The translations under genes and the position numbers were made by a program. From NCBI GenBank assembly GCA_050287085.1, contig JBNKBE010000004.1:128288-192287 (forward strand): 64,000 nucleotides of DNA, given 5' to 3'. This DNA comes from Polyangiaceae bacterium (GTDB taxonomy: Bacteria > Myxococcota_A > Polyangia > Polyangiales > Polyangiaceae). The stretch's first letter is position 1; the number at the start of each line of letters is the position of its first letter. Below the pieces are notes generated by a model. The model searched no databases and was not told the DNA's origin. It saw only the letters and a program-made list of their open reading frames with translations. Shown here one piece after another: positions 16,890-52,267 of this stretch.

Positions 16890-17177
16890 GCGCACGCGGC
16901 CCGACGTTTGGGGCGTGCAGATCGGCTCAAGGTCGAGCGCCTGGGGAACGCTATTGGCCGCCTCGCGCGGGGGGGATCGCAGCGTGCCGTGGGAAGGTGG
17001 GCGGCGGTAGGGGCTAGCACAGCAATTGTGTAGCAAGGGTGAAACCCAGATCTCCGTCGCGCGACTGGGGTGCGAGCGCGGATTACAATCGACGCGTGGC
17101 CCTCGACCGTGTAGACGGCCCTGAACTAGACTTTGCGAGCCCTTGTGGGGACACCGCTCGCTCTGATGAAGGACTTG

Positions 17178-19664
17178 ATGATGAACGACAGATTTAGACT
17201 GCTGCTGCTGCCGTTGCTTTGGCTGAGCGCCGCGGCGCTCGCGTTCGGCTGTAGCACGGACGCAAAGAAGGCTGACGGCGACGGCCCAGGCTGCCCGAGC
17301 GAGTACAGCTTGTGCTCGACGCCGACTCAGGACCAATGCGTCAACTTGCAGCTCGACGCCAAGAACTGCGGCAGCTGTGGTCAGCAGTGTGGTGCGGGCC
17401 AAGTCTGTAGTGCTGGTCAGTGCGCGTGTCCGGTGGGCAAAGAGCTCTGTGGAGATACGTGTGTTGACATTGCAATAGATCCGAACAACTGCGGCGTCTG
17501 CGGAAAGTCCTGCGCAGCGGAGGGTGCCAGCTTCTGCTCTTCGGGCGCGTGCACCAACGAATGTGGAGCGCCCAACAGCATTTGCGCCAGCGGGGCTACG
17601 GCGTTGTGCGTCGACCTGCAATCGAGCGTCGACAACTGTGGCGGCTGCGGAAAGACCTGCGGCGGCGCCCAGAGCTGTAGTGCGGGTAGCTGCGCGTGCG
17701 CCGACGGATCACCGGCGTGTGGTGCTGAGTGCTGCGGCGCTGGGCAAGAGTGCAACGCCGCGGGTACGGCCTGTGTGGCGGTCAGCGCAAACGGTGGCGC
17801 TGGCGGCGGCGGCGGCGGCAACGGCGGCGGCGGGATGTCCAACGGCGGAATGTCCAACGGCGGAGCCGCTCCAAAGCCCGTGGACGACCGCGAATGCCCT
17901 GCGGCCAGCGACGGCGTGATCGTCGACTTCGAAGAAGGCTCAGCGGCGGTGTTGCCGCTCGAAGGTCGCCAAGGCGCCTTCGAACCCTACGGCGATCCGG
18001 ATGGCACCTTTTCCGTCGCTGAGATCGAAGAAGAGGGCGCTGAAGCCTGCAATAAGGGGGTTTTTCACGCCGCGGGCTCGGGGTTCAGCACCTACGTGGG
18101 CGTGGGTACGACCTTTGCCTCCTCCGGGGTGGTGGACGAGGAATACGTACCCGTTCAATACGACGCGAAGTCCCGGGGCTACGTGGGGGTTGCCTTCCGC
18201 GCCAAGGCCGGGCCGCAACAACAAGGCCCGGTTCGTATCAGCTTGTCCATTCCTTCATCCGAGGGTGAGCCTCACGGGGACGGCACCTGCGGGACGGACG
18301 AGGGCGAGCAATGCTGGAACCACTTGGGGCATTTTCTCATCGACGACGAGGCTCTCGGCTCCGAGTGGAAAGACTACACCTTGTGTTTCGATGATCTGCA
18401 CACGATGTGGGTGCCCGGTACCGTGCAGCCACCCGCGCGCGCCAAGCTGCCGGAGCAACTGCTGAAGTTCCAGGTGCAGTTCAACCAGGGTTTTGATCCA
18501 GCGACCACGAAGCAATACCCGTATTCCCAGTCTTTCGACTTCTACATCGACGACATCAGCTTCGTCAAAGACGGCTGCCCAAGGCCGTCACCCTTCGAGT
18601 CGTCACCGAATACCACACAGCCTTTCGGCAGCAATATGCCGGTGGGTACGTGCATGCCGGTGCCCAATGCGGCCGTTCATAACACGGAGATTGCCCAGGC
18701 CTACCTCCGCTGGAAGAGCACTTTTGTGGGCGCAGATGGCACCGTTTTCGACCCTGAGCAGGGCAACCGCGTCATCTCCGAAGGCATCGGCTACGGCATG
18801 TTGTTGTCCGCCGCGATGGGTGACAAGGAGCTTTTCGACCGGATCTGGGGTTGGGCGGAAGGCAAGATGGGGGGCGGCTTGCTCGGTTGGGACAATGGCA
18901 ACTCGGGCTCAGGCTCCGCTACCGACGCTGACACCGACATGGCGTACGCCTTGTACATGGCCGATCACCAGTGGGGGGGCTACGCGGCCGCAGCCGCTGA
19001 CCTTGCGACCAAGGCGGCCGCAGCAGATCTCGATGGCACCAACCTGAAGGCGGGTAGCCAATTCAACGCGGGCAACCCAAGTTACTTCTCTCCCGGCTTC
19101 TACCGCAAGCTCGGTGGCGCGTGGGCGTCGGTGGTGGGCCCGGGTTATCAGTGGATGGATTCCTGCGACAGCAGCTTTGGCGGGGGTCAGAACGGCATCA
19201 TCTCCGACTGGTGTGACTTCGGTGGCAACGCCGTGTCATCATCCTCCACCGGGGCCAACGTCACGAGCGAGACCTGTCCCAATAGCGGCGAGGCATGCTC
19301 CGCCTACGACGCCTCGCGGATCCCTTGGCGGGTGGGTTATGACCTCTGCTTCAACGCCCAAGGAGCAGCGCTGGCCGCGCGCATGGTGCAAACCTATCAG
19401 GACCGTTTTCAACGCTTGGACTTGGCTCAGGCGGGGATCAGTCCCAGTGGTAGCCCCTACGAGGATCTCCAGGGAAGCGAGATGGCTGTGATCGGATCTC
19501 TGGCGGTAGCCGCTTGGGCCACCAACAACGTCGCTGCTCGTGATGTAGCGTTCTACGCAACGCTCGATATCTTGCAGCGCCCTGAGTACTACAAGACCTA
19601 TTACTCCACCACTCTGGGATTGTTGACGATGACCTTGATGACGGGCAACTGGCCCGCGCCTTAG
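17178..19664 (+). CDS. Modular lipoprotein: Cys-rich repeats, CBM-like domain, GH8 glycoside hydrolase
   Basis: FGC lipobox; D..NCGxCG repeats; Gly linker; FYIDDISF beta-sandwich end; GH8 motifs ISEGIGYGML, SATDADTDMAYAL, NPSYF, YDASRIPWRVG. Confidence 0.85.
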   Translation: MMNDRFRLLLLPLLWLSAAALAFGCSTDAKKADGDGPGCPSEYSLCSTPTQDQCVNLQLDAKNCGSCGQQCGAGQVCSAGQCACPVGKELCGDTCVDIAIDPNNCGVCGKSCAAEGASFCSSGACTNECGAPNSICASGATALCVDLQSSVDNCGGCGKTCGGAQSCSAGSCACADGSPACGAECCGAGQECNAAGTACVAVSANGGAGGGGGGNGGGGMSNGGMSNGGAAPKPVDDRECPAASDGVIVDFEEGSAAVLPLEGRQGAFEPYGDPDGTFSVAEIEEEGAEACNKGVFHAAGSGFSTYVGVGTTFASSGVVDEEYVPVQYDAKSRGYVGVAFRAKAGPQQQGPVRISLSIPSSEGEPHGDGTCGTDEGEQCWNHLGHFLIDDEALGSEWKDYTLCFDDLHTMWVPGTVQPPARAKLPEQLLKFQVQFNQGFDPATTKQYPYSQSFDFYIDDISFVKDGCPRPSPFESSPNTTQPFGSNMPVGTCMPVPNAAVHNTEIAQAYLRWKSTFVGADGTVFDPEQGNRVISEGIGYGMLLSAAMGDKELFDRIWGWAEGKMGGGLLGWDNGNSGSGSATDADTDMAYALYMADHQWGGYAAAAADLATKAAAADLDGTNLKAGSQFNAGNPSYFSPGFYRKLGGAWASVVGPGYQWMDSCDSSFGGGQNGIISDWCDFGGNAVSSSSTGANVTSETCPNSGEACSAYDASRIPWRVGYDLCFNAQGAALAARMVQTYQDRFQRLDLAQAGISPSGSPYEDLQGSEMAVIGSLAVAAWATNNVAARDVAFYATLDILQRPEYYKTYYSTTLGLLTMTLMTGNWPAP

Positions 19665-19813: not shown

Positions 19814-21358
19814 TCAGTACCAGCACACGGACAGACCGTCGAGCAGCCCCGCACCCCCACCCAGGTAGGGCCGGCACTCCCCCTCTTCGCAGGGGTCGTT
19901 GGGGGAACAAACGACGAGATCATAGAAGCCCATGTACGTATCTCGATCTGCGCATTCTTCCCGCGTGGTGCACGTGACCAGGTCGCGAACGGTGGCGCCC
20001 GTCACGTGGACGCAGCATATCTCGTCAGAATGGCAGTCACTGTGGGCATCGCATTCGACGGCGTCCGCCCCGTGCAGCGAGCCCCCCGCTTGGTGGCCAC
20101 AGGCCTCTGGTCCGTCGGTGGTGCAGAAGGGCTCTGCGCGCCTGGCGCAGCAGGTTTCCCCGGTATGGCAAACGACGTTGTAGCCTGCGTTGCAGGTGAA
20201 CGCGCCGCGCGTGTTGCGGGTGTCGAGGCAGTCACCCTCGTAGCAGAGAAAGTCACAGCTCGTATGTTCGATGACGCCTCGAACGCAGTGAGCGAGCACG
20301 CCGCCCTTCCACTCGAGATTCCAGCCATCCCACTCTGGGGGCTCACACCAGTCGGCGCTTCCAGGAATACAAGCCACACAGTCGCCTCCGTGGCATAGGG
20401 GCGCCGAGCTCGGGCAGGTCCGCGCGACCCAGGTGCCAGCGAGGCATTCGAGACGTGTGCCTTCGCCCTCACAACGCGTCGAGCCATTGTCGCACACGCA
20501 GCGCCCTTCCACTGCGTCGCAGAGGGGGGTTGTGTCCTCGCAGGTGGCTACAGCATTCCAGCTCCCGCTTTCGCATCGTTCAAGGCGTGGCTTGGCGAGA
20601 CCCTGGCAGCGAAATGTGCCCTCAGCGCATGCGCACGCGCCGGTCTCTTGATTGCAAATCGGCGTGTCGTTCGAGCAAGGGGCTTGGGCAACCCACCGGT
20701 CATCGCGGCACACTAGGGGTGTTGTGCCCGAGCATCGAGTGGACAATCCGGCCTCGGTGCTGCACTCAACACAACTCGATCCCTGGCATACGGGCGTGCT
20801 CCCCTCGCAGGCGCTGGCCTGGAATTCCCCGTATTCGTTGCAGGTCTCGACAGCGCTCAGATCTGCGGAGCACTGCTCTTGGCCCGCAGAGCAGGTGCCG
20901 CAGGTTCCGGTGGCCGTCAGGCACACCGGGCTCTTGCCCTCGCAGCGCTCGGCGAGTTCATAGCTTCCGTCGGCGTTGCACTCGTAGCTCGCAGCGCTTC
21001 GGCAGATCGGCGGCGACTGGCCCGGCTCACATTCTAGGCACCGCGTGCCCCCGCAGAAGGGGGTGTCTTTGGGGCAGGTCATCGTTTTCCATCGGCCCTC
21101 GGCACATACCCGCAGGGTTGCTGGATCAAGGCAAGTCTTGTCGCTGGGGGCGCACGTTGCGCCGGCGTCTCGGACCCAGGGCGTACCGGCGTCGCTGGGT
21201 TCATTGCGAATGCGGCCTGGGCCAGCGTCCGCGGCAGCGTCTGCTGGGGTGAGCGTTTCTGTCCACTCAAAGGGACCTGGATCGCACGCCAGCGCAGCCA
21301 GAAGCCCCAAGGGCCAGGCCGCGAAGGCCGGCAATAGGTGAAGGGAACGCACGCTCAT
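19814..21358 (-). CDS. Cys-rich repeat lipoprotein
   Basis: ATG 21358 overlaps the PAAR stop (ATGA); LAALAC lipobox; ~40-aa repeats C..G..C....L..C..G.W....C...TP.C. Confidence 0.8.
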   Translation of the reverse strand: MSVRSLHLLPAFAAWPLGLLAALACDPGPFEWTETLTPADAAADAGPGRIRNEPSDAGTPWVRDAGATCAPSDKTCLDPATLRVCAEGRWKTMTCPKDTPFCGGTRCLECEPGQSPPICRSAASYECNADGSYELAERCEGKSPVCLTATGTCGTCSAGQEQCSADLSAVETCNEYGEFQASACEGSTPVCQGSSCVECSTEAGLSTRCSGTTPLVCRDDRWVAQAPCSNDTPICNQETGACACAEGTFRCQGLAKPRLERCESGSWNAVATCEDTTPLCDAVEGRCVCDNGSTRCEGEGTRLECLAGTWVARTCPSSAPLCHGGDCVACIPGSADWCEPPEWDGWNLEWKGGVLAHCVRGVIEHTSCDFLCYEGDCLDTRNTRGAFTCNAGYNVVCHTGETCCARRAEPFCTTDGPEACGHQAGGSLHGADAVECDAHSDCHSDEICCVHVTGATVRDLVTCTTREECADRDTYMGFYDLVVCSPNDPCEEGECRPYLGGGAGLLDGLSVCWY

Positions 21359-21735
21359 GGGCCGATGAGAACGCTTGGGCAGCCGGCGATGACGCGGCCG
21401 CCTTGGCTCGTCGAATCGTTCTGCCGTGCTGCGGGCTTGCCGCCGATCAGAACCGACGAAGACCCTGTTATGATGGTGTCCTGGCCGTGGGTGCAGCCTG
21501 CCTGATCGCCGAGCCGCGCTGCGGGTTTGCCACATAGAAGAACGCGTGGGTCGCCCGTGAGCACGGGCCCTGCGCCACGCGGAACCGGGGTAGGGACCCC
21601 CAGCGGGCCAGATACGACGTGAACGCCACCGCAAGTGTGGGCGTCACCAACGCGAGCGGCTGGCCCGCTGCTGGAGGTGGCGGTGGCGGTGAGTAGGGCG
21701 GCAAGTGCAAGCCAAAAAACGTGTTTGGGCGTCAT
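21355..21735 (-). CDS. PAAR-domain spike-tip protein with N-terminal signal peptide
   Basis: Three PAAR motifs (GPAARVGD, KPAARLGD, KPAARQND), ends SVLIGP; N-terminus MTPKHVFWLALAALLTATATS; AAGGAAG SD. Confidence 0.93.
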   Translation of the reverse strand: MTPKHVFWLALAALLTATATSSSGPAARVGDAHTCGGVHVVSGPLGVPTPVPRGAGPVLTGDPRVLLCGKPAARLGDQAGCTHGQDTIITGSSSVLIGGKPAARQNDSTSQGGRVIAGCPSVLIGP

Positions 21736-21746
21736 AGCACTTCCTT

Positions 21747-22118
21747 TCAGTTCAGCTTGATGAGGCCGCCGCGTACCTCAACCAACGACTGGCCCCGGAG
21801 TTCAAGGGTGGTGCTGGCTTCGACCTGCAGCTTTGAGCCGGCGTGCAGCTTGGTTTCCGCACCGGACTCCACCTTGAGGTGTCGCCCAGCCTTCAGTGTT
21901 AGGTCGCGTCCGGCCTCGATGGTCAAGGAATCGCCCTGAATCATCAGGAATCGGCGCAGTGTCGCATTCTCCTCTTCCAGTCGAGCCACCCGACTCTGCA
22001 GGGCGACCAATGCCGGATCGGAGGGGGTGGGACGCCCAGCGATCCGCGGCGCCGCTCCGGCCACCGCCGCCGCTGCCAAGGCCAAACAAAAAGTTCCGAC
22101 GACTGCCGATCGCATCAT
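21747..22118 (-). CDS. Signal peptide + coiled coil + VgrG/gp5-like C-terminal beta-helix (mini-spike), 123 aa
   Basis: AGGAG SD before ATG 22118; MMRSAVVGTFCLALAAAAVAGA; heptad LVALQSRVARLEEENATL; seven octapeptide repeats ending GGLIKLN. Confidence 0.8.
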   Translation of the reverse strand: MMRSAVVGTFCLALAAAAVAGAAPRIAGRPTPSDPALVALQSRVARLEEENATLRRFLMIQGDSLTIEAGRDLTLKAGRHLKVESGAETKLHAGSKLQVEASTTLELRGQSLVEVRGGLIKLN

Positions 22119-22249
22119 TGACGTACTCCTCCGCTGGCCAACGTTCAGAAACGTTCGGCCCAAGGCCCCTAGGATACCCGTCAGAGGCAGGCTTGTGTAG
22201 CCCGCTCTCCAAGTAAGCCCCCAGCTAACGCCGAGAAGGAGGGCTACGC

Positions 22250-24025
22250 CTATTCGTCCGAGAGTGGGATCGGGATCCAGAACAGCTTGGCTTCGGTTTT
22301 GCGCCCGTCACGCTCGTAGCCAACAAGACCGAATAGGATATCCCACCAATGGCCGCGCCGAGTCTCGCCGAAGCCGAACGCGGGCAGGACGTGCACGCTC
22401 CAATTGTCTTTGCGCGTTGTCTTGCGCTCACGGTAGAGCACGTTGCCCATCAACTGGGTCAGGCTGTCGGGCCGCGCGAAGCGCCAGAATACCGGGAAGA
22501 CAACCGTCGTGCGCTCCGTGGGATCGTCGAAGTCGAAGAGAAGCGGCGCCAGCACGCGGTGCGAGCTCGTTCTGTCGCGCCCGAAGTAGGCGAGCGGAAA
22601 TAGGTTGAGGTTCCAACCGGTAATGCTCGTCTCGTAGTTGAATAGCGGCGTGATCCAGCGGCTGTGGGATAGACTGTGGCGCTTGAAACTGCCGTAAAAA
22701 GGGAACACAGCCCAGCTGTCTTCGCGCGGGCTTTGGTAGGAATAGTAGAACGGCAGGATCCACTTCTGGTCGATGCCTGCTGCCGGCTCGCGGTAGAGCC
22801 ACACCAAGGGCGAGAACATGTCGAGTTCTCGGCGTCCGCGGTGACGAGCGTAGCCCCACGTGGCAAAAGTCGTGTCGCCAGCTTCGCCCCGGCGGGAGAG
22901 GTAGAACGGATTAATGAAGAGCTCTGCCGACTTGTCCCAGCTGTAGTGAAAGAAAGGAAGCAGCGTCGTGCTGCGCCGATCTTTGCCCCAACTGCTCCAG
23001 TACAAAGGCATTAGGTGGAGGCTGTCGGCGTCGGGCCCGTGCTCGCGGTAGTACGGACCCCAGACATCGAGCTCGGTTTCAGCGTCGAGGTCGGCGCCGT
23101 GATAGTGCAGCAGCGGGGGGATCAGCCGGTAGTTGCTGGTGTCGTCCCGGCCGGCGAAATAGAAGGGCGCCACCCCCAAGTCTCGTTCGGTGGTCTCCGA
23201 CGAGAAGCAACCGTCACCCTTCTTCCAGGAACAGAAGCCTGGACCAAAGAGGTTGAGACCCCCCTCCGCGTCCTGGCTCATGTAGGTGAGCAGGGGCGGT
23301 ATAACTGCGTAGCCACCATCTGGGCGCGTGCCGAAAAAGTAGAGGGGAGCCAGCCAATCATCGCTCTTGCCCTGGCCGCGCCGATTCAGGAATGGACCGA
23401 CGAGGGTCGTGCGACTCTCGGCGTCACGCAGATTCCAAAAAACGGGGAAGACGATATCGTCAGCTCGCTCAGCGCTGCGGCGGTTGTAATACAGCCCGCC
23501 CCATAGCGAGGCTCTGTCGGGGACCGCTGGATCAGCCAGGCTTGGCTGCTGACGCTCAAACCACAAGGGAAATGCGGTACGCAGCTGATAGCTACCGCTC
23601 TTCTCCTGGTAGTACAGCCCGTAGAAGTCGCGCTCCGCAAACCCGCTCCGGCCCCGCTCGGCGTTGTTGTCGACGGTATCTGTGCCAAGCTGAGCGAGCA
23701 GCTCATCGCTCAAGGCCAAAGGATCCGCCGGCAAGCTCGGCTCACTGCCTTCGGGCAGCGTCGTTTGCCCGCTGCCGGATGCGGCGTGCAGTTCTGGGGT
23801 TCCCGGGGGCGCTTTGCTCTGACCTTTCCCCTTGGAGGGGCGCGCCGAACCACCGCCCGGACTTGCCAAGGGATCTTGCCCAAGGCCCGCGCCTCCAATC
23901 CCGCGATTGAAGGGGTCGTTTTGAGCCCAGGCTTGGGCTTGGGGAAGCAAGGCCCAAACCAGAGCCGACGCTGCCACGCGACAACACGCCCACCGGGAAC
24001 GCCGCAGTCGGCGGTGCTTCACCAC
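22250..24025 (-). CDS. Exported aromatic-rich beta-repeat protein of unknown function
   Basis: Signal peptide ending AQAWA-Q; many ~16-20-aa repeats with xP(L/F/V)(F/Y)(W/F/Y) cores; ends KLFWIPIPLSDE. Confidence 0.75.
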   Translation of the reverse strand: MVKHRRLRRSRWACCRVAASALVWALLPQAQAWAQNDPFNRGIGGAGLGQDPLASPGGGSARPSKGKGQSKAPPGTPELHAASGSGQTTLPEGSEPSLPADPLALSDELLAQLGTDTVDNNAERGRSGFAERDFYGLYYQEKSGSYQLRTAFPLWFERQQPSLADPAVPDRASLWGGLYYNRRSAERADDIVFPVFWNLRDAESRTTLVGPFLNRRGQGKSDDWLAPLYFFGTRPDGGYAVIPPLLTYMSQDAEGGLNLFGPGFCSWKKGDGCFSSETTERDLGVAPFYFAGRDDTSNYRLIPPLLHYHGADLDAETELDVWGPYYREHGPDADSLHLMPLYWSSWGKDRRSTTLLPFFHYSWDKSAELFINPFYLSRRGEAGDTTFATWGYARHRGRRELDMFSPLVWLYREPAAGIDQKWILPFYYSYQSPREDSWAVFPFYGSFKRHSLSHSRWITPLFNYETSITGWNLNLFPLAYFGRDRTSSHRVLAPLLFDFDDPTERTTVVFPVFWRFARPDSLTQLMGNVLYRERKTTRKDNWSVHVLPAFGFGETRRGHWWDILFGLVGYERDGRKTEAKLFWIPIPLSDE

Positions 24026-46611: not shown

Positions 46612-49600
46612 CTAGTGAAAGTCGCGAGAGCGTAGCTGCGGGGACTGCGGAGTATCGAGTCGTGCGAGCTGTTGCGCGATGACGTGTATGATCGCTGTTG
46701 GGCGCCCAACCTCCCCGGGTTTTGGGCGAGGCATCTTGCGCTCGAGCTTGCCGACGACAAGCAACATCATCGCGTGCCTGGCGACGTGATGGTACTGCTC
46801 AAAGAGCTGACGAAACAGCACCACGTTGATGGTTCCGGTTTCATCTTCGAGAGTGATGAAAACAATGCCAGACGCCGTGCTGGGACGTTGGCGTGCCAGT
46901 ACCAAACCCGCTACGCGAACCTGAGCGTTCCCAGGTGCATGGCTGAGTTGTGAAGCGCGGATGACCCCTTGCTGAGCCAAGCGAGCGCGCAAATGGCTCA
47001 AAGGATGATCGGATAGGCATAACCCCAGCCGCTGATAGTCCAGGGCCATCTGCTCTCCCTTGGCGAGCGGTGGCAAGTTCGCTGGCGTTGTGGTTGACGG
47101 TGCGTTGCGAAAGAGCGGGCCAGGGCTTTCGATCCCGACAGCCCATAGTGCTTGTCGTCGACCCAATTGCAAGCCTTCGAGTGCCCCTGCTTCTGCGAGA
47201 AGTTCAAGCTGTCGCGTCGCCAAACCGCTGCGAGTCCTAAAGTCCGCTAGATGTTGAAACTGGCGTTCATTGCGCGCAACTATCCAGTGCTGGGTCTGTG
47301 CGGAATTGAGTCCCTTGATCAATCGTAAACCCAATCGTACAGCGCGTTTCTCAACGGGGCCTTCCAGAGTGCAGTCCCAATCACTGTGACAGACGTCCAC
47401 AGGAAGAATTGTAACGCCGTGTCGCTGTGCGTCTTTAAGCAGGCTTGATACCGAGTAGAAGCCCAGGGGCTGAGAATTAACTAGAGCACAGGTGAAATAG
47501 GCTGGGAAGTGCGCCTTCAGCCAAGCAGATAGGTAGACCAAAAGCGCAAAGGAGGCCGCGTGTGACTCGGGAAAGCCGTATTCACCAAAACCCTTGATCT
47601 GCTCGAATAGAGCCGTCCCAAATGATTCTGAAATGCCTTTGCGCTTGAATCCGGAAATCAGTCGCTCTCGATGGCGGTTAAGTTGTCCTGTTCGCTTCCA
47701 GGCGGCCATGTCGCGCCGCAGTTGGTCAGCCTCACCTCCTGTGTACCCCGCACCGGCGATAGCCAGTTGCATGACCTGTTCCTGAAACAACGGCACACCT
47801 AGTGTGCGCTGAAGGATGGGCCATAGACATTCATGGGGGACATGGATCGGCTCTTCACCATTTCTGCGTTTCAGATAGGGGTGCACCATGCCCCCTTGAA
47901 TCGGCCCAGGTCGAACAAGGGCTACTTCGACCACGAGATCGTAAAAGTGCTGCGGGCGAAGGCGCGGCAACATGGCCATTTGTGCTCGACTTTCGACTTG
48001 AAAAACACCAACCGTATCGGCTTCGCTAATCATGCCGTAGACAGCACGGTCTTCAGGGGGGACGCGTGTTACGACCTCCAGCGGATCGAAGAAATCAGCC
48101 GTCGCTGAGGGTGAAGTCAGCAGGTGCGTGCCCCGAAGGTATCCGTCATTCCACGTGAGACGTAGTGCCTTGCGGATAGCAGTAAGCATGCCCAGACCAA
48201 GGACATCCACCTTGAAAAAGCCGAGCGCATCGATGTCGTCCTTATCCCACGGGATGACTGTGCGGCCGGGCATCGAAGCTGGTTCGACAGGCGCTATCTG
48301 ACAGAGTGGAGCTTGAGATAGAACAAAACCCCCCACATGAATCGACATATGACGAGGTGTTCCTTCCAATGCCTTCGACCATTCAACTACCTGGCGTAGC
48401 CCATGGTCATTGACGTCGAGGCCATGCTGTCGAAAGTGTTCAGTGCTCGACTCGGCACTATTCCAATGGGTGATTGAGCTGCTCAGTTGATTGACTTGGT
48501 TATTTGATAGGCCAAAAACCTTTCCGACTTCACGCAATGCGCTCTTGCCGCGGTAGCAAATGACCGTAGATACCATTGCCGCACGATCACGGCCGTAGCG
48601 GTCGTAGATGGCCTGTATTACTTCTTCGCGGCGTTCATGCTCGAAGTCGATATCGATATCTGGCGGCTCTGCTCTTTCTTCGCTGAGGAAGCGTTCAAAT
48701 AGTAGATTGCTTCGAGCTGGGTCGACAGCTGTGATGCCAAGGACGAAGCAGACGGCGCTATTGGCTGCACTTCCCCTGCCCTGACATAAGATGTGTTTTG
48801 TGCGAGCAATCTCGATGATCTCCCATGTACACAAAAAATAGCTTGCGACGCCTAATCGTGTGATGAGCTTCAGTTCCTTTTCGAGCTGCAATACAACCCG
48901 TTCTGGAATGTCCTCGGAGTAGCGTCTGGCGGCGCCCTCCCACGTTAGACGTCGCAACTTTTCGTCGGCTGTTTCACCTTCGTCGAGCGCGCATGGAAAC
49001 TGGTAGCGTAGATCTTTGAGATCGAATTGTAGCGCCGCTGCCGCTAGTTCTGTGTTGTCTACCCAGCTTGGGCGTTCCTGGAATAGACGCCGCATAACCT
49101 GCTCGGAGCGTAAGCAGGCCTCAGCGTTTGAGCTCAGTCGAGTTCCAGCTTGGTCTAGCGTGTAGCCTTCACGAATGCATTGGACGATATCTGCGAGCGG
49201 TCGACGAGAGCGTTCGTGATATAAAGGAAAATTGCTCGCGATAACCGGAAACCCCGTAGTGCGAGACAAGCGCTCTGCCTGGGCCATTCGCTCGGGGTCA
49301 AAGCCGTCCAAACGCCGATAGCAGGCGATGTAACCGCGATTTCTAAAGAGCTGACTTAGGTGTGATAGTGAAAGAATTGCAGAGCTGCGCGCCTCGTCGG
49401 ATGTGGCTTCTGAGCTGGTAATTTCGCTATCAAGAAAAACAGGGACAATAAGCGATAGGCTTTGTGATGACTGCTCTGAGAAGTCAGAAAGCCTGAGCCA
49501 GGCTTCGCCTTTTATGCCTCGGCTATGCGCTTGGGTAAGTAGTTGGCAGAGGTTCTGGTAGCCCAGCGCGTCGTGAGGTAGCGCACAAAGGGTAAACGTA

Positions 49601-49824
49601 GCTGTTGCATCGGTTGTAAGCGATATCGATGCGCCGAAATGAAGCTTCTGACCAAGCTCCTTGGCTGCGACCCATGCTCGTACGGCGCCGTAAAGACCGT
49701 TGTGGTCACAGAGACCCAAGGATGAAAGCTTTAGGGCTTGAGCTCTGTGGAGTAGTTCTTCTGGACTGGATGCGCCGCGAAGAAATGAAAAATTGCTTCG
49801 TGCAATGAGTTCCGAAAAGGCCAC
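46612..49824 (-). CDS. dnaE2: Error-prone DNA polymerase (ImuC)
   Basis: SNFSFLRGAS PHP start, GRGSAANS, PPDIDIDFEH, FKVDVLGLGML, YGFPESHA, C-terminal SRDFH. Confidence 0.97.
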   Translation of the reverse strand: MAFSELIARSNFSFLRGASSPEELLHRAQALKLSSLGLCDHNGLYGAVRAWVAAKELGQKLHFGASISLTTDATATFTLCALPHDALGYQNLCQLLTQAHSRGIKGEAWLRLSDFSEQSSQSLSLIVPVFLDSEITSSEATSDEARSSAILSLSHLSQLFRNRGYIACYRRLDGFDPERMAQAERLSRTTGFPVIASNFPLYHERSRRPLADIVQCIREGYTLDQAGTRLSSNAEACLRSEQVMRRLFQERPSWVDNTELAAAALQFDLKDLRYQFPCALDEGETADEKLRRLTWEGAARRYSEDIPERVVLQLEKELKLITRLGVASYFLCTWEIIEIARTKHILCQGRGSAANSAVCFVLGITAVDPARSNLLFERFLSEERAEPPDIDIDFEHERREEVIQAIYDRYGRDRAAMVSTVICYRGKSALREVGKVFGLSNNQVNQLSSSITHWNSAESSTEHFRQHGLDVNDHGLRQVVEWSKALEGTPRHMSIHVGGFVLSQAPLCQIAPVEPASMPGRTVIPWDKDDIDALGFFKVDVLGLGMLTAIRKALRLTWNDGYLRGTHLLTSPSATADFFDPLEVVTRVPPEDRAVYGMISEADTVGVFQVESRAQMAMLPRLRPQHFYDLVVEVALVRPGPIQGGMVHPYLKRRNGEEPIHVPHECLWPILQRTLGVPLFQEQVMQLAIAGAGYTGGEADQLRRDMAAWKRTGQLNRHRERLISGFKRKGISESFGTALFEQIKGFGEYGFPESHAASFALLVYLSAWLKAHFPAYFTCALVNSQPLGFYSVSSLLKDAQRHGVTILPVDVCHSDWDCTLEGPVEKRAVRLGLRLIKGLNSAQTQHWIVARNERQFQHLADFRTRSGLATRQLELLAEAGALEGLQLGRRQALWAVGIESPGPLFRNAPSTTTPANLPPLAKGEQMALDYQRLGLCLSDHPLSHLRARLAQQGVIRASQLSHAPGNAQVRVAGLVLARQRPSTASGIVFITLEDETGTINVVLFRQLFEQYHHVARHAMMLLVVGKLERKMPRPKPGEVGRPTAIIHVIAQQLARLDTPQSPQLRSRDFH

Positions 49825-49844
49825 GGATGAAGTGTTGAGCTGGG

Positions 49845-51449
49845 CTAGCGGATAATGCCGTGTAGATAGGCCTTTCCAGTTGACTTGTCTTCGTAGGCGA
49901 CGCCTTCAAACGACTCCTTCTCTGAGCGAAGTATTACGTCTGCATAATCTCGAGAAATGGAATTGGACCACCAGAGCACCGAGCCTAAGCGGTGCCTAAA
50001 TTGCAGAGCCTCGACAAAAAACATGCGTTCTTCGATGCGAACGCTGGAGTGTTTCTTGAATTCACCGATGATTGCGAGCGCTGGAGTGAAAAGGCGCATG
50101 AGAGAGCCGAAGGTTGTGCCCCTGAGAGTCGATGGTATTTGTGTGCTCGTTGCAGTTTCCAAGAACGGTACGAGTTGACTCTGCTTCTCGGGGCAGTATG
50201 TGTCGACAAGCTGGAGCTTGCCAAAGCACTCGGCACCGATGTCAGCAGTGAGTTCACCGAACAATACGGATAGCTCTGCTGCTCCGGCTTTTAACTTGGT
50301 GAAGGCACTGGTAAGAGGCAATTGATGAGAGATGGGGAGGCACAATGCAGGCACTGTCAGTGTGACTCCGACGCAGGGGGCGGAGAGCTTTGTTTGCTCC
50401 AGCCGCGCACAAGCGACCGACCAGATATCAGCGGCTTGATATAGCGGGGCCAGGAGATCGAGCTCACTCGTCGTGACTGGCTCGAGGTTGTGAAAGCGGC
50501 AAAATGCAGGGTCAGAATGTAGTGTGATTCGTAACCTTTGGGCTGCAAGGCCCCGCCCTTGAAGACGCCGGGACATGCGTGCAGATAGGCCACGAAGAGC
50601 AAAGAGCAGTGGCTGATACTGAGCAATTGGCTCATCCCAATCGATGCGCTCTTGAAGTTGTGGCTGAGGTGTATGCCACTGAAGTGGCGCATCGTCGCGC
50701 CCTGACAATAGCTGCAAACAATGCTGTGCAGAGCTGTCCAAATGAAGTGCTAGCGCTTTGGATGGTAAGCGCATGAGCTGATGCCACGAATGAAAGCCGA
50801 GCCGAGTGAGTCGCTTCTTCGCAGATTCAGTCAGTGGCAACGCTTCGATTGGCAGTTTTCTGAAGTCAGCGGTAGTGATGGGGTCAGAGCATAGGTAGCC
50901 CGTCTCATGGGATGATTCTGGATGCCAGTAAGCCAAGGCAAACCCTAGATGAGGTCCGGGCGCAGTAGCGATGCGGACACGATGTCCCAAGGTCCTAAGA
51001 GTGGTGCAGATCTGCCTGCAGAGGAGCGCCTCGCCACCAAAAAGATGTGAGCGTCCGGTGATTTCAATCCAAATGCAGGGCTTGAAGGAACTGTTGCGCT
51101 TGGTCTCAGTAGGAGCGTTAAGTCGAGTTAGTGAGCAAGCAACCGATGATGAGAACTCAAGCAAACACTCACACAGGCTTTGCAAGGTCTGTTCGAGGAG
51201 ATGCCGAGGAAGAGAAAGAATCTCCAAGTTCGCAACGTAGGCTTTGGCTTCGATGATCTGCTGACCGGGCGATATACCCAAATCGGCGGCTTTTTTGTTA
51301 ACAGCAGCTATGTGCTGGGTCTGAAGCTCGTCCTCGATGATAGCGGCCCAGGGTTGGCTGTCATCATGACCTTGCTGTCGGAGGAGCTCATCGAATAGGT
51401 GCGGCAAGGCAACTGTCAGAATGCGTCGATGGCCCATCGGGAGCTCCAT
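49845..51449 (-). CDS. imuB: Inactive Y-family polymerase-like ImuB
   Basis: AVNKKAADLGISPGQ, HLFGGE, LPIEAL; no catalytic Asp in first strand; lies between imuA and dnaE2. Confidence 0.85.
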   Translation of the reverse strand: MELPMGHRRILTVALPHLFDELLRQQGHDDSQPWAAIIEDELQTQHIAAVNKKAADLGISPGQQIIEAKAYVANLEILSLPRHLLEQTLQSLCECLLEFSSSVACSLTRLNAPTETKRNSSFKPCIWIEITGRSHLFGGEALLCRQICTTLRTLGHRVRIATAPGPHLGFALAYWHPESSHETGYLCSDPITTADFRKLPIEALPLTESAKKRLTRLGFHSWHQLMRLPSKALALHLDSSAQHCLQLLSGRDDAPLQWHTPQPQLQERIDWDEPIAQYQPLLFALRGLSARMSRRLQGRGLAAQRLRITLHSDPAFCRFHNLEPVTTSELDLLAPLYQAADIWSVACARLEQTKLSAPCVGVTLTVPALCLPISHQLPLTSAFTKLKAGAAELSVLFGELTADIGAECFGKLQLVDTYCPEKQSQLVPFLETATSTQIPSTLRGTTFGSLMRLFTPALAIIGEFKKHSSVRIEERMFFVEALQFRHRLGSVLWWSNSISRDYADVILRSEKESFEGVAYEDKSTGKAYLHGIIR

Positions 51450-52267
51450 GGTTTGGAACTGACTGACTGTGAACGAGTAGAACTTATAGGGATTATTTGT
51501 GGCGCTCGCAGCCGTCCGCGCTTGTCCTTGGTGATTGCGATGGAGAGCTGTTGCTCGCTGTTTCCGATAACATTCGCGAGGTGCAGTCGCATTCCCACTG
51601 GGAGCGGCTGCGTGCGAGGGAAGGAATCATCGGTGAGCAGCAGCACAACCGTTTGATTGCCTTGAATCGCCAGCGAGATTTGGCGTGTTGCTCGGATCCA
51701 CTGCGAGAGCCCAGGCGAGAGATGGGAGCGCGGTGTTGCCTTGCTGCGGAGACTTGTTCTGGCGGGTGTATTTGAACGGCCAGCTATTGCTGACAACAAG
51801 TCGACCACAATGAGTGAGAAGATGTTGCTGCGGGCTAGTTTTACCGCAGTTCGCGCCAGTGAAGCGACCGGAGGACGGACGATCAACAGCTGATCTAAAG
51901 CGATCCCCATGGCCAATAGAGTGGGAGCAAATAGCTCACCCCGCGGGTCGACAAAAGCGCACACGGCTGAGGCCCCGGTTCTACAAGCCTGATGTTGAAC
52001 CTGGTAACAGGCGACCAGAGCGAGCCACGTACTCCATCCACTGAGTCCAATATGAGTCAGCTCTGTAAGTTGTCCGTGAGGTAACCCACCCTCAGGAAGG
52101 AAGCGATCAAGAGCCTCAATGCCTAGGCTTAGAGCTGTGGTGGTGCCCAGGCCTTCTTTTCCAAGGAGGGGCTTGCTGTGTTCGCTCTGCCATGTAGTTG
52201 CCAGCTGAATGAGCGAGGCAGTGCCCTGCACGCGAGCTGAATCAGAGCGCAATCCAGAAGGTGACAT
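51416..52267 (-). CDS. imuA: RecA-like ImuA
   Basis: GIEALDRFLPEGGLPHGQLTEL, AFVDPRGELFAP, LLIVRP, LIVVDL; degenerate Walker A. Confidence 0.85.
   Translation of the reverse strand: MSPSGLRSDSARVQGTASLIQLATTWQSEHSKPLLGKEGLGTTTALSLGIEALDRFLPEGGLPHGQLTELTHIGLSGWSTWLALVACYQVQHQACRTGASAVCAFVDPRGELFAPTLLAMGIALDQLLIVRPPVASLARTAVKLARSNIFSLIVVDLLSAIAGRSNTPARTSLRSKATPRSHLSPGLSQWIRATRQISLAIQGNQTVVLLLTDDSFPRTQPLPVGMRLHLANVIGNSEQQLSIAITKDKRGRLRAPQIIPISSTRSQSVSSKPWSSRWAIDAF

Follow-up and report, generated by a model that had tools for sequence, protein, structure and literature searches.

Two adjacent genes of a Polyangiaceae bacterium, which we call A and B, encode a miniature VgrG-type spike and a PAAR protein that probably form an exported, PAAR-capped trimer assembled outside the cytoplasm. 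In the reading we favor, both proteins would leave the cytoplasm via Sec, and their signal peptides would be cleaved. Three mature A chains (~100 aa each) would then form a trimeric coiled coil running into a short triple-stranded β-helix, homologous to the last turns of the VgrG/gp5/Cis8 spike, and one mature B molecule, the PAAR cone, would cap the blunt GGLIKLN end of this helix via three VLxGG strands. Because gp27-like hub, OB-fold, tube, sheath, and baseplate are all missing, such a needle would have to work without contraction, as a pointed trimer, periplasmic or surface-exposed, that binds or enters an envelope or membrane.

Gene layout, domains, and export signals

The 64,000-nt stretch of DNA analyzed here (the window) carries three linked genes on its minus strand. 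Gene A (21747..22118; protein P0001, 123 aa plus stop) is followed after a gap of 11 nt by gene B (21355..21735; P0002, 126 aa plus stop), and the stop codon of B overlaps the start codon of gene C (19814..21358; P0003, 514 aa plus stop) in the sequence ATGA. On the same strand, a Shine-Dalgarno-like GGAGGAG (22126..22132) lies 7 nt 5′ of the gene A ATG, and a second such motif, AAGGAAG (21740..21746), lies 4 nt 5′ of the gene B ATG. The open reading frames and translations thus bear out the original prediction of three tightly linked minus-strand genes with an 11-bp gap, an ATGA overlap, and ribosome-binding motifs before the first two. A scan for promoters and terminators gave nothing informative. 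Domain searches of the other long ORFs identified housekeeping genes only in the window outside the cassette. The gene upstream of A encodes a 591-aa protein that is LA_1737-like (below cut-off) and is conserved alongside ruvX and mltG in a genome of the same genus that has no cassette; we therefore do not count it in the system.

Export was called with a home-made heuristic rather than SignalP, based upon a positively charged n-region, an uncharged hydrophobic stretch, and small-x-small sites. All three features were seen in the N-termini of A, B, and C, with hydrophobic stretches of 16–21 aa. The signal-peptide-like N-terminus of A (residues 1–22; 22053..22118, minus strand) consists of MMR and an uncharged hydrophobic stretch of 21 aa, with candidate cleavage sites at AVA↓G, VAG↓A, and AGA↓A. 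That of B (residues 1–23; 21667..21735, minus strand) consists of MTPKH, VFWLALAALLTATATS, and SS, with a hydrophobic stretch of 16 aa, and it stops exactly where canonical PAAR proteins have Met1 (alignments A1 and A4), so that the predicted mature protein would begin with GPAARVGD. No in-frame ATG, GTG, or TTG occurs between the gene B ATG and the first PAAR motif. The hydrophobic segment of B must therefore be translated, which answers for this gene the earlier concern that the true start might lie downstream. From these sequence features, we infer that A and B are cleaved and reside outside the cytoplasm.

The remainder of A comprises a putative coiled coil (residues ~36–58; 21945..22013, minus strand), ALVALQSRVARLEEENATLRRFL, assigned from the best-conserved block of its family and from PDB profile matches, and β-helix repeats (residues 59–123; 21750..21944, minus strand) that end in GGLIKLN. 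By itself, P0001 matched DUF2345 (E 0.0044, residues 63–101) and Francisella TssI (E 0.011) below the respective cut-offs, and its 123 residues gave no match to a gp27-like hub (PF05954) or an OB-fold in Pfam or NCBIfam. A profile of the A family matched the C-terminal β-helices of solved VgrG/Cis8 spikes in the PDB with E-values from 2.6e-8 to 9e-5 (best matches: 9gtr_q, 2.6e-8; 7b5h_AJ, 1.2e-6; 9rce_F, 1.8e-6), and it also matched trimeric and designed coiled coils. The C-terminal residues of A, VRGGLIKLN, resemble those of full-length VgrG proteins at other loci (GSLVQIN or GTFVKIN), in each case directly before the stop codon. The description of A as a 123-residue combination of signal peptide, coiled coil, and gp5/VgrG-type repeats is thus backed by the heuristic, the family block, and the VgrG-like C-terminus.

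B is a PAAR protein by Pfam (PF05488: E 9.6e-22, 77.4 bits against a cut-off of 27, three matched stretches), and its profile matched the SalCis10 chain 9rce_c with an E-value of 1.4e-40, as well as 8gra_J, 4jiw, and 4jiv. Its score against the NCBIfam T6SS PAAR model NF033420 was 50.4 bits, below the cut-off of 124. The mature PAAR domain (residues 24–126; 21358..21666, minus strand) has three PAAR repeats by alignment A1 and PDB profile, and the protein terminates right after it. Together with the heuristic signal peptide ahead of the canonical start, these matches uphold the earlier identification of B as a PAAR protein that carries an export signal. In P0002, two of the three near-invariant PAAR histidines are replaced, by arginine in VPHVGGP (VPRGAGP) and by glutamine in TAHGG (TSQGG); they are kept in an alignment of other signal-peptide PAARs. 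P0002 keeps Cys35 and Cys81 and has additional histidines in an 8-aa insertion and in CTHG. Orphan PAARs, according to Ahmad et al. (2020; PMC7773334), typically have four His/Cys metal ligands. The branch of P0002 in a tree of mature PAAR domains is long (0.67), and this length together with the lost histidines could point to decay.

Gene C would be co-translated with B to give a lineage-typical Cys-rich exported protein, possibly a lipoprotein. Its sequence around the candidate site, LLAALA↓CD, does not fit the strict lipobox L-[AS]-[GA]-C, and ALA↓C is an equally good SPase I site; it does fit the loose PROSITE-type lipobox pattern. P0003 had no match in Pfam, NCBIfam, or the PDB and gave only repeat-level matches in same-genus genomes; its nearest Atlas clusters are Myxococcota hypotheticals (0.83–0.84). 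At loci with related gene pairs (see below), the PAAR gene is followed by a P-type ATPase gene (L023) or by an unrelated gene on the opposite strand (L062/L079). Gene C is therefore not conserved with the pair, contrary to its inclusion in the originally predicted system, and might serve the pair locally as cargo or partner.

Relatives and distribution of the pair

A belongs to an unnamed family of ~28 small metagenomic proteins, all with the order signal peptide, coiled coil, β-helix. A word-indexed search with P0001 recovered only the protein itself, and the relatives surfaced in an exhaustive search; a word-indexed search with the A2 profile gave 10 small members, none named. Identity between A and its full-length relatives is 26–37%, and the best-conserved block in the alignment is LEQRVAxLExQNAxLR. 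Our heuristic found signal-peptide features in 27 of the 28 aligned relatives, compared with none of four canonical PAAR controls. In roughly 20 of the 28 relatives, the chain continues beyond the helix into a C-terminal tail, which in most cases resembles a single PAAR repeat (G-K/R-P-A/V-A-R-x-G-D ... GS-x-TV). Consistent with this resemblance, PF05488 matches six of the 29 members of the family alignment (best E-value 1.5e-7), and hhalign aligns the family tail to the third PAAR repeat (82% probability, E 1e-5). The A family thus appears to have its tip either fused or, as in the window, separate. An Atlas search pointed to Nitrospirota and Gemmatimonadota (0.94) as a lead, and a lead only, on the taxa that carry the family. 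Two loci from an A3 scan of metagenomes matched through the coiled coil only and were rejected as false; an A3 scan of viral contigs gave one match, again confined to the coiled coil.

Signal-peptide PAARs directly follow β-helix genes at three other loci (L023, L062, and L079), which represent two other lineages. The β-helix partners end in GGLITLN at L023 and in GGLVTIN at L062 and L079 (pattern GGLxxxN), and P0001 aligns with both partners through its last residue. The L062/L079 partner has 360 aa and its own signal peptide; the L023 partner gene is broken by a contig end and lacks the part for its N-terminus. In the tree of mature PAAR domains, nine signal-peptide PAARs fall into three clusters, requiring three label changes for the trait (8.5 in shuffles, none of 500 being as low), and this clustering indicates that the trait is inherited. 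In each of the four genomes with such a pair, the signal-peptide PAAR is the sole PAAR match, and none of the four has a TssC match. Signal-peptide PAARs thus recur beside β-helix genes in genomes without a TssC match, in support of the original prediction.

The pair is rare. Among the matches inspected, it occurs in one of 401 genomes of the phylum, the source genome (G000); G480 is the only one of 301 genomes of its own order to have it, and both genomes from the genus of G000 lack the cassette. The A2 profile gave 114 matches over the 401 genomes, one of them in G000, and no second member of the A family was found among these matches. The 17 A2 loci that we inspected were rejected as helix ends of gpV/gp5-type or VgrG spikes without a signal peptide, among them L115, a gpV-like spike with a fused apex, and in all but two of the remaining rows the alignment is confined to the helix portion. 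The same profile gave no match over 31 genomes of the phylum of G479, including G479 itself, which has the pair, so that this result is uninformative.

The original prediction also held that no contractile genes accompany the pair. That part stands for the window: its 41 other long ORFs contain no tube, sheath, baseplate, or hub domains, and no chaperone-like or toxin domain was found among the window ORFs. VipB/TssC, Hcp, and gp25 were likewise not found in G000, which is 96.8% complete. For the genome as a whole, the claim must be qualified, because G000 carries contractile-tail (myovirus-type) prophage modules on two other contigs (C24 and C6). A negative search of G000 with the sheath family PF04984 was a false negative that missed these prophage sheaths, and PF04984 therefore gives a weak negative for metagenome-assembled genomes. 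A search with phrog_23 found a sheath-like gene in G481 and no match in G479 or G480, both of which hold the pair. A Phage_GPD match on contig C10 was rejected as a contractile-injection locus; it is a lone 516-aa ORF (29.9 bits) with unrelated neighbors.

The modeled tip and competing explanations

We modeled three mature spike chains with one mature PAAR protein, alongside three controls. The complex scored an ipSAE of 0.89 in three of three runs, the best of the three controls scored 0.00, partner pLDDT was 93–94, and contact agreement was at least 98%. Among solved complexes, 116 of 157 attain the mark set for ipSAE; among mismatched pairs, two of 215 do. Contacts in the model are made by spike residues 117–123 of all three copies and by residues 64–69, 94–99, and 121–126 of B, with residue 26 also in the interface. 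The predicted interface is thus the canonical one between the helix end and three VLxGG strands, with the reservation that, given the likeness to solved VgrG–PAAR structures, the high score may reflect the predictor's familiarity with them.

An exported trimer is not the only way to read these proteins. A, and perhaps B, might retain an uncleaved signal anchor and point as a tethered needle from the inner membrane into the periplasm. The 21-aa stretch of A has the length of a transmembrane helix, as do stretches of 20–26 aa in several relatives, and an anchor followed by a coiled coil is a common stalk design. We nonetheless regard this arrangement as unlikely: small-x-small sites (for example, AQA↓E or AHA↓E) follow the stretch in A and nearly all relatives, the stretch of B has only 16 aa, and an uncleaved helix would be awkward next to residue 26 of B, which lies in the modeled interface. 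An envelope location would also suit a role in decoy or exclusion, in which a periplasmic mimic of a spike tip occupies the envelope target of incoming phage, tailocin, or T6SS spikes. The predicted periplasmic site is the compartment that such spikes cross, and the sporadic, island-like distribution is like that of defense genes. Yet the window has no defense-island neighbors, and we know of no exclusion protein with a spike-tip fold, which leaves this role quite improbable.

The remaining explanations start from the prophage tail modules of G000, whose contigs stop short of the baseplate genes, so that a phage origin of the pair, or a link to phage, is possible. A and B could be what is left of a spike operon (phage, eCIS, or T6SS), with hydrophobic N-termini that are incidental and no functional product. 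The tail modules, the absence of the cassette from same-genus genomes, and the missing histidines and long branch of P0002 all favor such decay. Against it, the A and B reading frames are intact, tightly coupled, and preceded by ribosome-binding motifs; signal peptide and coiled coil are common to the whole A family and occur in no VgrG; signal-peptide PAARs form inherited clusters; and the interface residues are kept, with the complex predicted confidently. A functionless relic therefore seems to us a poor bet. More improbable still is a role as moron or moonlighting genes, in which A and B would provide the myovirus-like elements with their spike tip. No other PAAR or β-helix spike was seen in the G000 assembly, and the broken prophage contigs could be taken in favor of this idea, but phage tails assemble in the cytoplasm, from which export signals would remove A and B. 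Moreover, A has no OB-fold or hub for docking on a tube, the pair sits among housekeeping genes on another contig (319 kb), and G479 and G480 have the pair without a phrog_23 sheath match. We thus retain the exported, PAAR-capped trimer as the preferred reading. More tentatively, A–B may represent a class of Sec-exported, contraction-independent needles of coiled coil and VgrG-type β-helix, with a tip made either of three fused single PAAR repeats, one from each chain (a homotrimeric cone), or of a separately exported, monomeric PAAR protein, that pierce or bind envelopes on their own without a T6SS.

Comparison with known systems

The usual view assigns PAAR and VgrG to contractile machines assembled in the cytoplasm, and reviews and effector-prediction tools treat PAAR as a T6SS marker. 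If our reading is true, bacteria would have put the spike tip, as a module sufficient in itself, to new use beyond the cell membrane, and caution would be due in taking every PAAR gene for T6SS cargo. For structural studies and engineering, the pair would provide a pointed trimer that assembles by itself and is very small (about 100 + 100 aa). The relatives with a fused single repeat would, in addition, open the origin of the pseudo-threefold PAAR fold to direct testing, and in them the one-repeat ancestor of that fold would have a living representative.

In agreement with the original prediction, we found no described system with this architecture in the literature. The closest structural counterparts are compared here in turn. 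The VgrG/PAAR tips of T6SS and eCIS machines (4JIV/4JIW, 8GRA, 9RCE SalCis8/SalCis10, 7B5H, and 7AEF) likewise have a three-repeat PAAR, the β-helix of A matches the last turns of VgrG/Cis8, and there, too, the spike gene precedes the PAAR gene. Unlike these tips, A and B have export signals, and A, in which most of the helix is missing along with the OB-fold and gp27-like hub, has a coiled coil instead. Spikes of the P2 gpV/phi92 gp138 type are reportedly trimeric β-helices with a tip built by all three chains; these phage proteins are cytoplasmic and begin with an OB-fold. That design fits the A relatives with a fused PAAR-like repeat and the gpV-like ORF at L115, whereas A of the window has a separate PAAR and no fused apex, and members of the A family combine a signal peptide with a coiled coil.

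The prePAAR effectors, as presented in the eLife paper of Ahmad et al. (2020; PMC7773334), combine the prePAAR motif, a transmembrane domain, PAAR, and a toxin, use Eag chaperones, and are T6SS substrates. From that account, they share with B a PAAR protein with a hydrophobic N-terminal region. In B, by contrast, the segment lies ahead of the first AAR motif and has the form of a signal peptide, the PAAR domain is not followed by a toxin, and searches of the genome found no T6SS.

By analogy, and as described by Caulton et al. (2024, Nat Microbiol; PMC10769870), the MAT fibers of Bdellovibrio are the nearest functional precedent for A–B. These are Sec-exported, phage-like trimeric β-helix fibers displayed on the surface without a contractile machine; the same paper gives them ~1,000 aa, a conserved β-rich domain of ~130 aa after the signal peptide, and S74, TNF-like, or lectin tips, and the word PAAR has no occurrence in it. 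With only 123 aa, A has no room for the ~130-aa MAT domain so described. The 360-aa partner of the signal-peptide PAAR at L062/L079, compared by description with the fibers in that paper, resembles the MAT idea.

Architecture of the spike and PAAR genes

Genes A, B, and C lie co-oriented on the minus strand at 19814-22118. Gene A (22118..21747), encoding a candidate mini spike of 123 aa, carries GGAGGAG 7 nt ahead of the ATG; gene B (21735..21355), encoding a 126-aa PAAR protein, starts 11 nt past the gene A stop behind AAGGAAG; and the ATG of gene C (21358..19814), encoding a Cys-rich protein of 514 aa, overlaps the gene B TGA as ATGA. Housekeeping genes make up the other 41 long ORFs in the window (among them hisF/H, htpG, tkt, bamB/D, greA, groEL, pnp, ptsI, and rpoN), none of which contains a tube, sheath, baseplate, or hub domain. 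Gene layout, domain matches, and this survey thus bear out the coordinates, arrangement, PAAR identity, and lack of such domains in the original prediction. Convergent with the cassette is a gene (17133-19664) for an 843-aa secreted protein with an MXAN_6577-like/Stig1-like Cys-rich N-terminal region and a GH8 (BcsZ-like) glycoside hydrolase. Elsewhere, at 46615-52267, GC falls to 0.53-0.56 from about 0.64, and ORFs for a DnaE-type polymerase (1070 aa), a 534-aa protein with no Pfam match, and a RecA-like protein (283 aa) follow in a row, an order that resembles an imuA-imuB-dnaE2 mutagenesis cassette.

Gene A had only sub-threshold domain matches (DUF2345, E 0.0044; Francisella TssI, E 0.011), and a word-indexed search found no relatives. 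Searched exhaustively with HMMER, 1.84 billion representatives yielded 104 matches with E up to 1e-3, about 28 of them to small proteins of 106-192 aa, all metagenomic and unnamed, that are 26-37% identical to gene A across nearly the whole length and belong to an unannotated family (P0129-P0226). In this family, a signal-peptide-like N-terminus is followed by a Pro-rich linker, a coiled coil with the strongly conserved block LEQRVAxLExQNAxLR, beta-helix repeats, and the end motif G-x-[LV]-x-[LV]-N. By an n/h/c-region heuristic, 27 of the 28 small relatives have signal-peptide features, the exception, P0196, beginning at the coiled coil. In the PDB, the family profile matched solved VgrG/Cis8 spikes in their C-terminal beta-helices (9gtr_q, 2.6e-8; 7b5h_AJ, 1.2e-6; 9rce_F, 1.8e-6; 7aef_q, 3.1e-5; 8gra_I, 9.3e-5), and its coiled-coil part matched trimeric and designed coiled coils. 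Gene A ends in ...GGLIKLN*, and full-length VgrGs adjoining canonical PAAR genes end in ...GSLVQIN* or ...GTFVKIN*. Based upon these profile matches and the shared C-terminal motif, we read gene A as the last turns of a VgrG-type spike, in which the hub and OB-fold would have given way to a signal peptide followed by a coiled coil for trimerisation.

Roughly 20 of the 28 small relatives continue for some 30-40 aa beyond the ...LN end, most with the consensus G-[KR]-P-[AV]-A-R-x-G-D ... G-S-x-T-V-[LF] (GKPAARVGD...GSxTVLV). The Pfam PAAR model matched this tail in 6 of 29 alignment members (best 1.5e-7), hhalign placed it on the third PAAR repeat (82% probability, E 1e-5), and a PDB search aligned it to residues 68-98 of the 4JIV and 9RCE PAARs. 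One such repeat per chain could, in a trimer, form a cone equivalent to the pseudo-threefold PAAR domain, and the tailed proteins may therefore be homotrimeric, self-capped needles bearing a one-repeat relative of the PAAR fold. The tail is absent from P0142, P0188, P0215, and gene A of the window, which is followed by the separate PAAR gene B, so that one family would combine fused and split versions of the tip. A similar single PAAR-like repeat occurs at L115 (G053:C111:5984-8883), where a 217-aa open frame combines a beta-helix with a fused apex (...GAMPVARQGDPV...GNPTVKA); no signal peptide was evident in the stretch read, and we read this frame as a gpV-like spike.

Pfam identifies the gene B product as a PAAR protein (PF05488, E 9.6e-22; 77.4 bits, cut-off 27), but it scored far under the cut-off of the NCBI T6SS-PAAR model (50.4 against 124 bits). 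Could its true start lie downstream of the hydrophobic segment? Read in frame, the stretch from the annotated ATG to the first PAAR motif holds no further ATG, GTG, or TTG, so any functional PAAR has to carry the extension of 23 residues. Among 50 aligned PAARs, this extension stops exactly at Met1 of canonical 96-aa PAARs (MxxPAARxGD), and cleavage after ...TSSS would leave a native-like GPAARVGD N-terminus. The same kind of extension occurs among the best gene B matches (P0004, P0005, P0006, P0018, P0038, P0089, and P0102). Our export-signal calls come from a simple n/h/c-region script, a heuristic, which recognised such features in A, B, and C as well as in each of six further signal-bearing PAARs, and at the N-terminus of none of four canonical PAARs. 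In a tree of mature domains only, nine signal-bearing PAARs formed three clusters, and the signal-bearing label changed 3 times, where shuffling gave a mean of 8.5 and none of 500 shuffles so few. This clustering argues that the extension is an inherited trait of PAAR sublineages rather than an annotation accident; the tree is also compatible with a single origin of the extension. Gene B represents one of a few lineages of putatively exported PAARs.

Orphan PAARs usually have four His/Cys zinc ligands, as described by Ahmad et al., 2020 (PMC7773334). In gene B, substitutions remove two of three near-invariant histidines (VPHVGGP to VPRGAGP; TAHGG to TSQGG), which the other signal-bearing PAARs keep. 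Gene B has also acquired an 8-aa insertion with a histidine (GGVHVVSG) and CTHG in place of CxGP; its mature product (21358-21666) has four cysteines. These changes may point to a reshaped metal site, to a core held by disulfides, as would suit the periplasm, or to decay.

A modelled three-to-one complex

We modelled three copies of A (residues 34-123, family alignment A2) with one of B (residues 24-126, PAAR alignment A1). The complex scored an ipSAE of 0.89 in all three runs, compared to 0.00 for the best of three controls, with pLDDT of 93-94 and at least 98% of contacts common to the runs; 116 of 157 solved complexes reach the ipSAE mark, as do 2 of 215 mismatched pairs. The contacts run from residues 117-123 in every copy of A to B residues 64-69, 94-99, and 121-126, which are the three VLxGG strands, with the geometry seen in VgrG-PAAR structures. 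The predicted interface between the trimer end and PAAR was thus recovered with the mature chains. The model speaks to retention of the interface rather than to binding as such, and the high score may reflect likeness to complexes that have already been solved. Residue 26 of B, the third of the presumed mature chain, lies in the modelled interface, which would favour a cleaved over an anchored B N-terminus.

The pair recurs in genomes where TssC was not found

Among 80 genomic PAAR loci fetched with the closest signal-bearing PAAR as query, three contain a signal-bearing PAAR beside a beta-helix gene. In L023, from an unclassified high-GC MAG, a beta-helical ORF whose N-terminus is cut by the contig end finishes in ...VNGGLITLN* 13 nt before the PAAR gene. 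In two Rikenellaceae MAGs (L062:6505-7587 and L079:1176-2258), the upstream gene encodes a 360-aa signal-peptide protein (N-terminus MKKSFFLLMILALNINSFPQA...) whose beta-helix ends in ...QGGLVTIN*, and the PAAR has a C-terminal extension of ~40 aa. Gene A aligns with these partners to the last residue (L023, 34% over 65 aa, E 1e-3; L062/L079, 26% over 73 aa, E 3e-5). Wherever the partner N-terminus is visible (the window, L062, and L079, representing two independent lineages), export signals are present on the spike-like protein and the PAAR alike. The finding holds and is no mere curiosity of a single genome.

In each of the four genomes holding the pair, the signal-bearing PAAR is the sole PAAR match, and VipB/TssC was found in none; Hcp and gp25 were also not found in the window's genome (96.8% complete). 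On these results, none of the four genomes ties the pair to a T6SS. The idea of a genome without contractile systems was wrong, however, for the window's genome. A tube search (PF06841) gave two strong matches, which PHROGs annotation placed in myovirus-type prophage modules: one at C24:78300-94282, with an XkdF-like protease fused to a D12 methyltransferase, major head, neck, 740-aa sheath, tube, hub, and tape measure, and a partial one at C6:257200-271188, both reaching contig ends ahead of any baseplate genes. A PF04984 sheath search of this genome was a false negative; PHROGs 15814, 23, and 17610 detect that sheath. By phrog_23, sheath-like genes number two here and one in G481, with none found in G479 or G480. 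Here the pair lies far from the prophages, on a separate contig of 319 kb with housekeeping surroundings. A lone Phage_GPD match in the same genome (29.9 bits, unrelated neighbours) was rejected as a contractile locus.

Across 401 genomes of the phylum, the A2 profile found no second gene A family member, with 17 loci opened and the remaining matches judged from aligned profile range; the opened loci were rejected as helix ends of gpV/gp5-type or VgrG spikes without a signal peptide. With the signal-PAAR profile, 63 of these genomes proved to have PAARs, and only the window's was signal-bearing among the matches inspected, which comprised seven of the top 12 loci opened (L185, L186, L188-L191, and L194) and L187, L192, L193, and L195 by aligned range alone, leaving out lower partial N-terminal matches (G263:C6, G191:C59, and G224:C27). 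In the order of G480, PAARs occur in 25 of 301 genomes, and only that of G480 is signal-bearing. The neighbouring gene at 22250-24025 encodes a 591-aa signal-peptide protein full of [FY]-P-[LVF]-[FYW] repeats, with a below-cut-off NCBIfam match (LA_1737_Cterm, 4e-12). It is conserved in two same-genus genomes (56-60% identity; about 58-60% by tblastn), and in one of these, G097, its flanking genes are ruvX and mltG, just as in the window. The cassette is missing from both, other genes, including a different Cys-rich protein, standing in its place, and the 591-aa gene is not linked to it. Rarity in the phylum and order searches and absence from congeners mark the cassette as a sporadic accessory unit, probably mobile or of fast turnover.

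Gene C, proposed action, and related systems

Gene C has no Pfam, NCBIfam, or PDB match. The gene that follows PAAR encodes a P-type ATPase in L023 and is, in L062 and L079, an unrelated one on the opposite strand, which places gene C outside the conserved unit; the proposed display of the spike by a lipoprotein found no support. Its translational coupling to the PAAR gene recalls effector genes downstream of PAAR and suggests that it may be a local partner; its likeness to Myxococcota-style Cys-rich proteins is a lead only.

We consider it fairly probable that an exported PAAR-capped trimer is made. In the mechanism we propose, A and B would be exported by Sec, cleaved, and assembled in the periplasm or beyond into the modelled 3:1 needle, whose tip would bind the envelope or insert into a membrane without contraction. 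From gp5 helix and coiled-coil geometry, we estimate a needle of roughly 10-12 nm.

We place the pair, with its tip split off, in a so far unannotated family of coiled-coil/beta-helix needles with predicted export. Zhang et al., 2012 (PMC3482391) confine PAAR to a T6SS context, Wood et al., 2019 (PMC7376260) mention signal peptides only for immunity proteins and artificial targeting, and Ahmad et al., 2020 describe N-terminal PAAR extensions as prePAAR and transmembrane domains. None of the papers examined from full-text searches of open-access main texts on PAAR export, T6SS-independent PAAR, and Bdellovibrio fibre trimers reports a PAAR with a signal peptide or a VgrG-tip protein with one. 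The Bdellovibrio MAT fibres are Sec-exported trimeric beta-helices (Caulton et al., 2024; PMC10769870), but the word PAAR does not occur in the main text of that paper. The A-B pair, not described in the papers examined, is best filed as a probably Sec-exported and contraction-independent variant of the spike/PAAR module.
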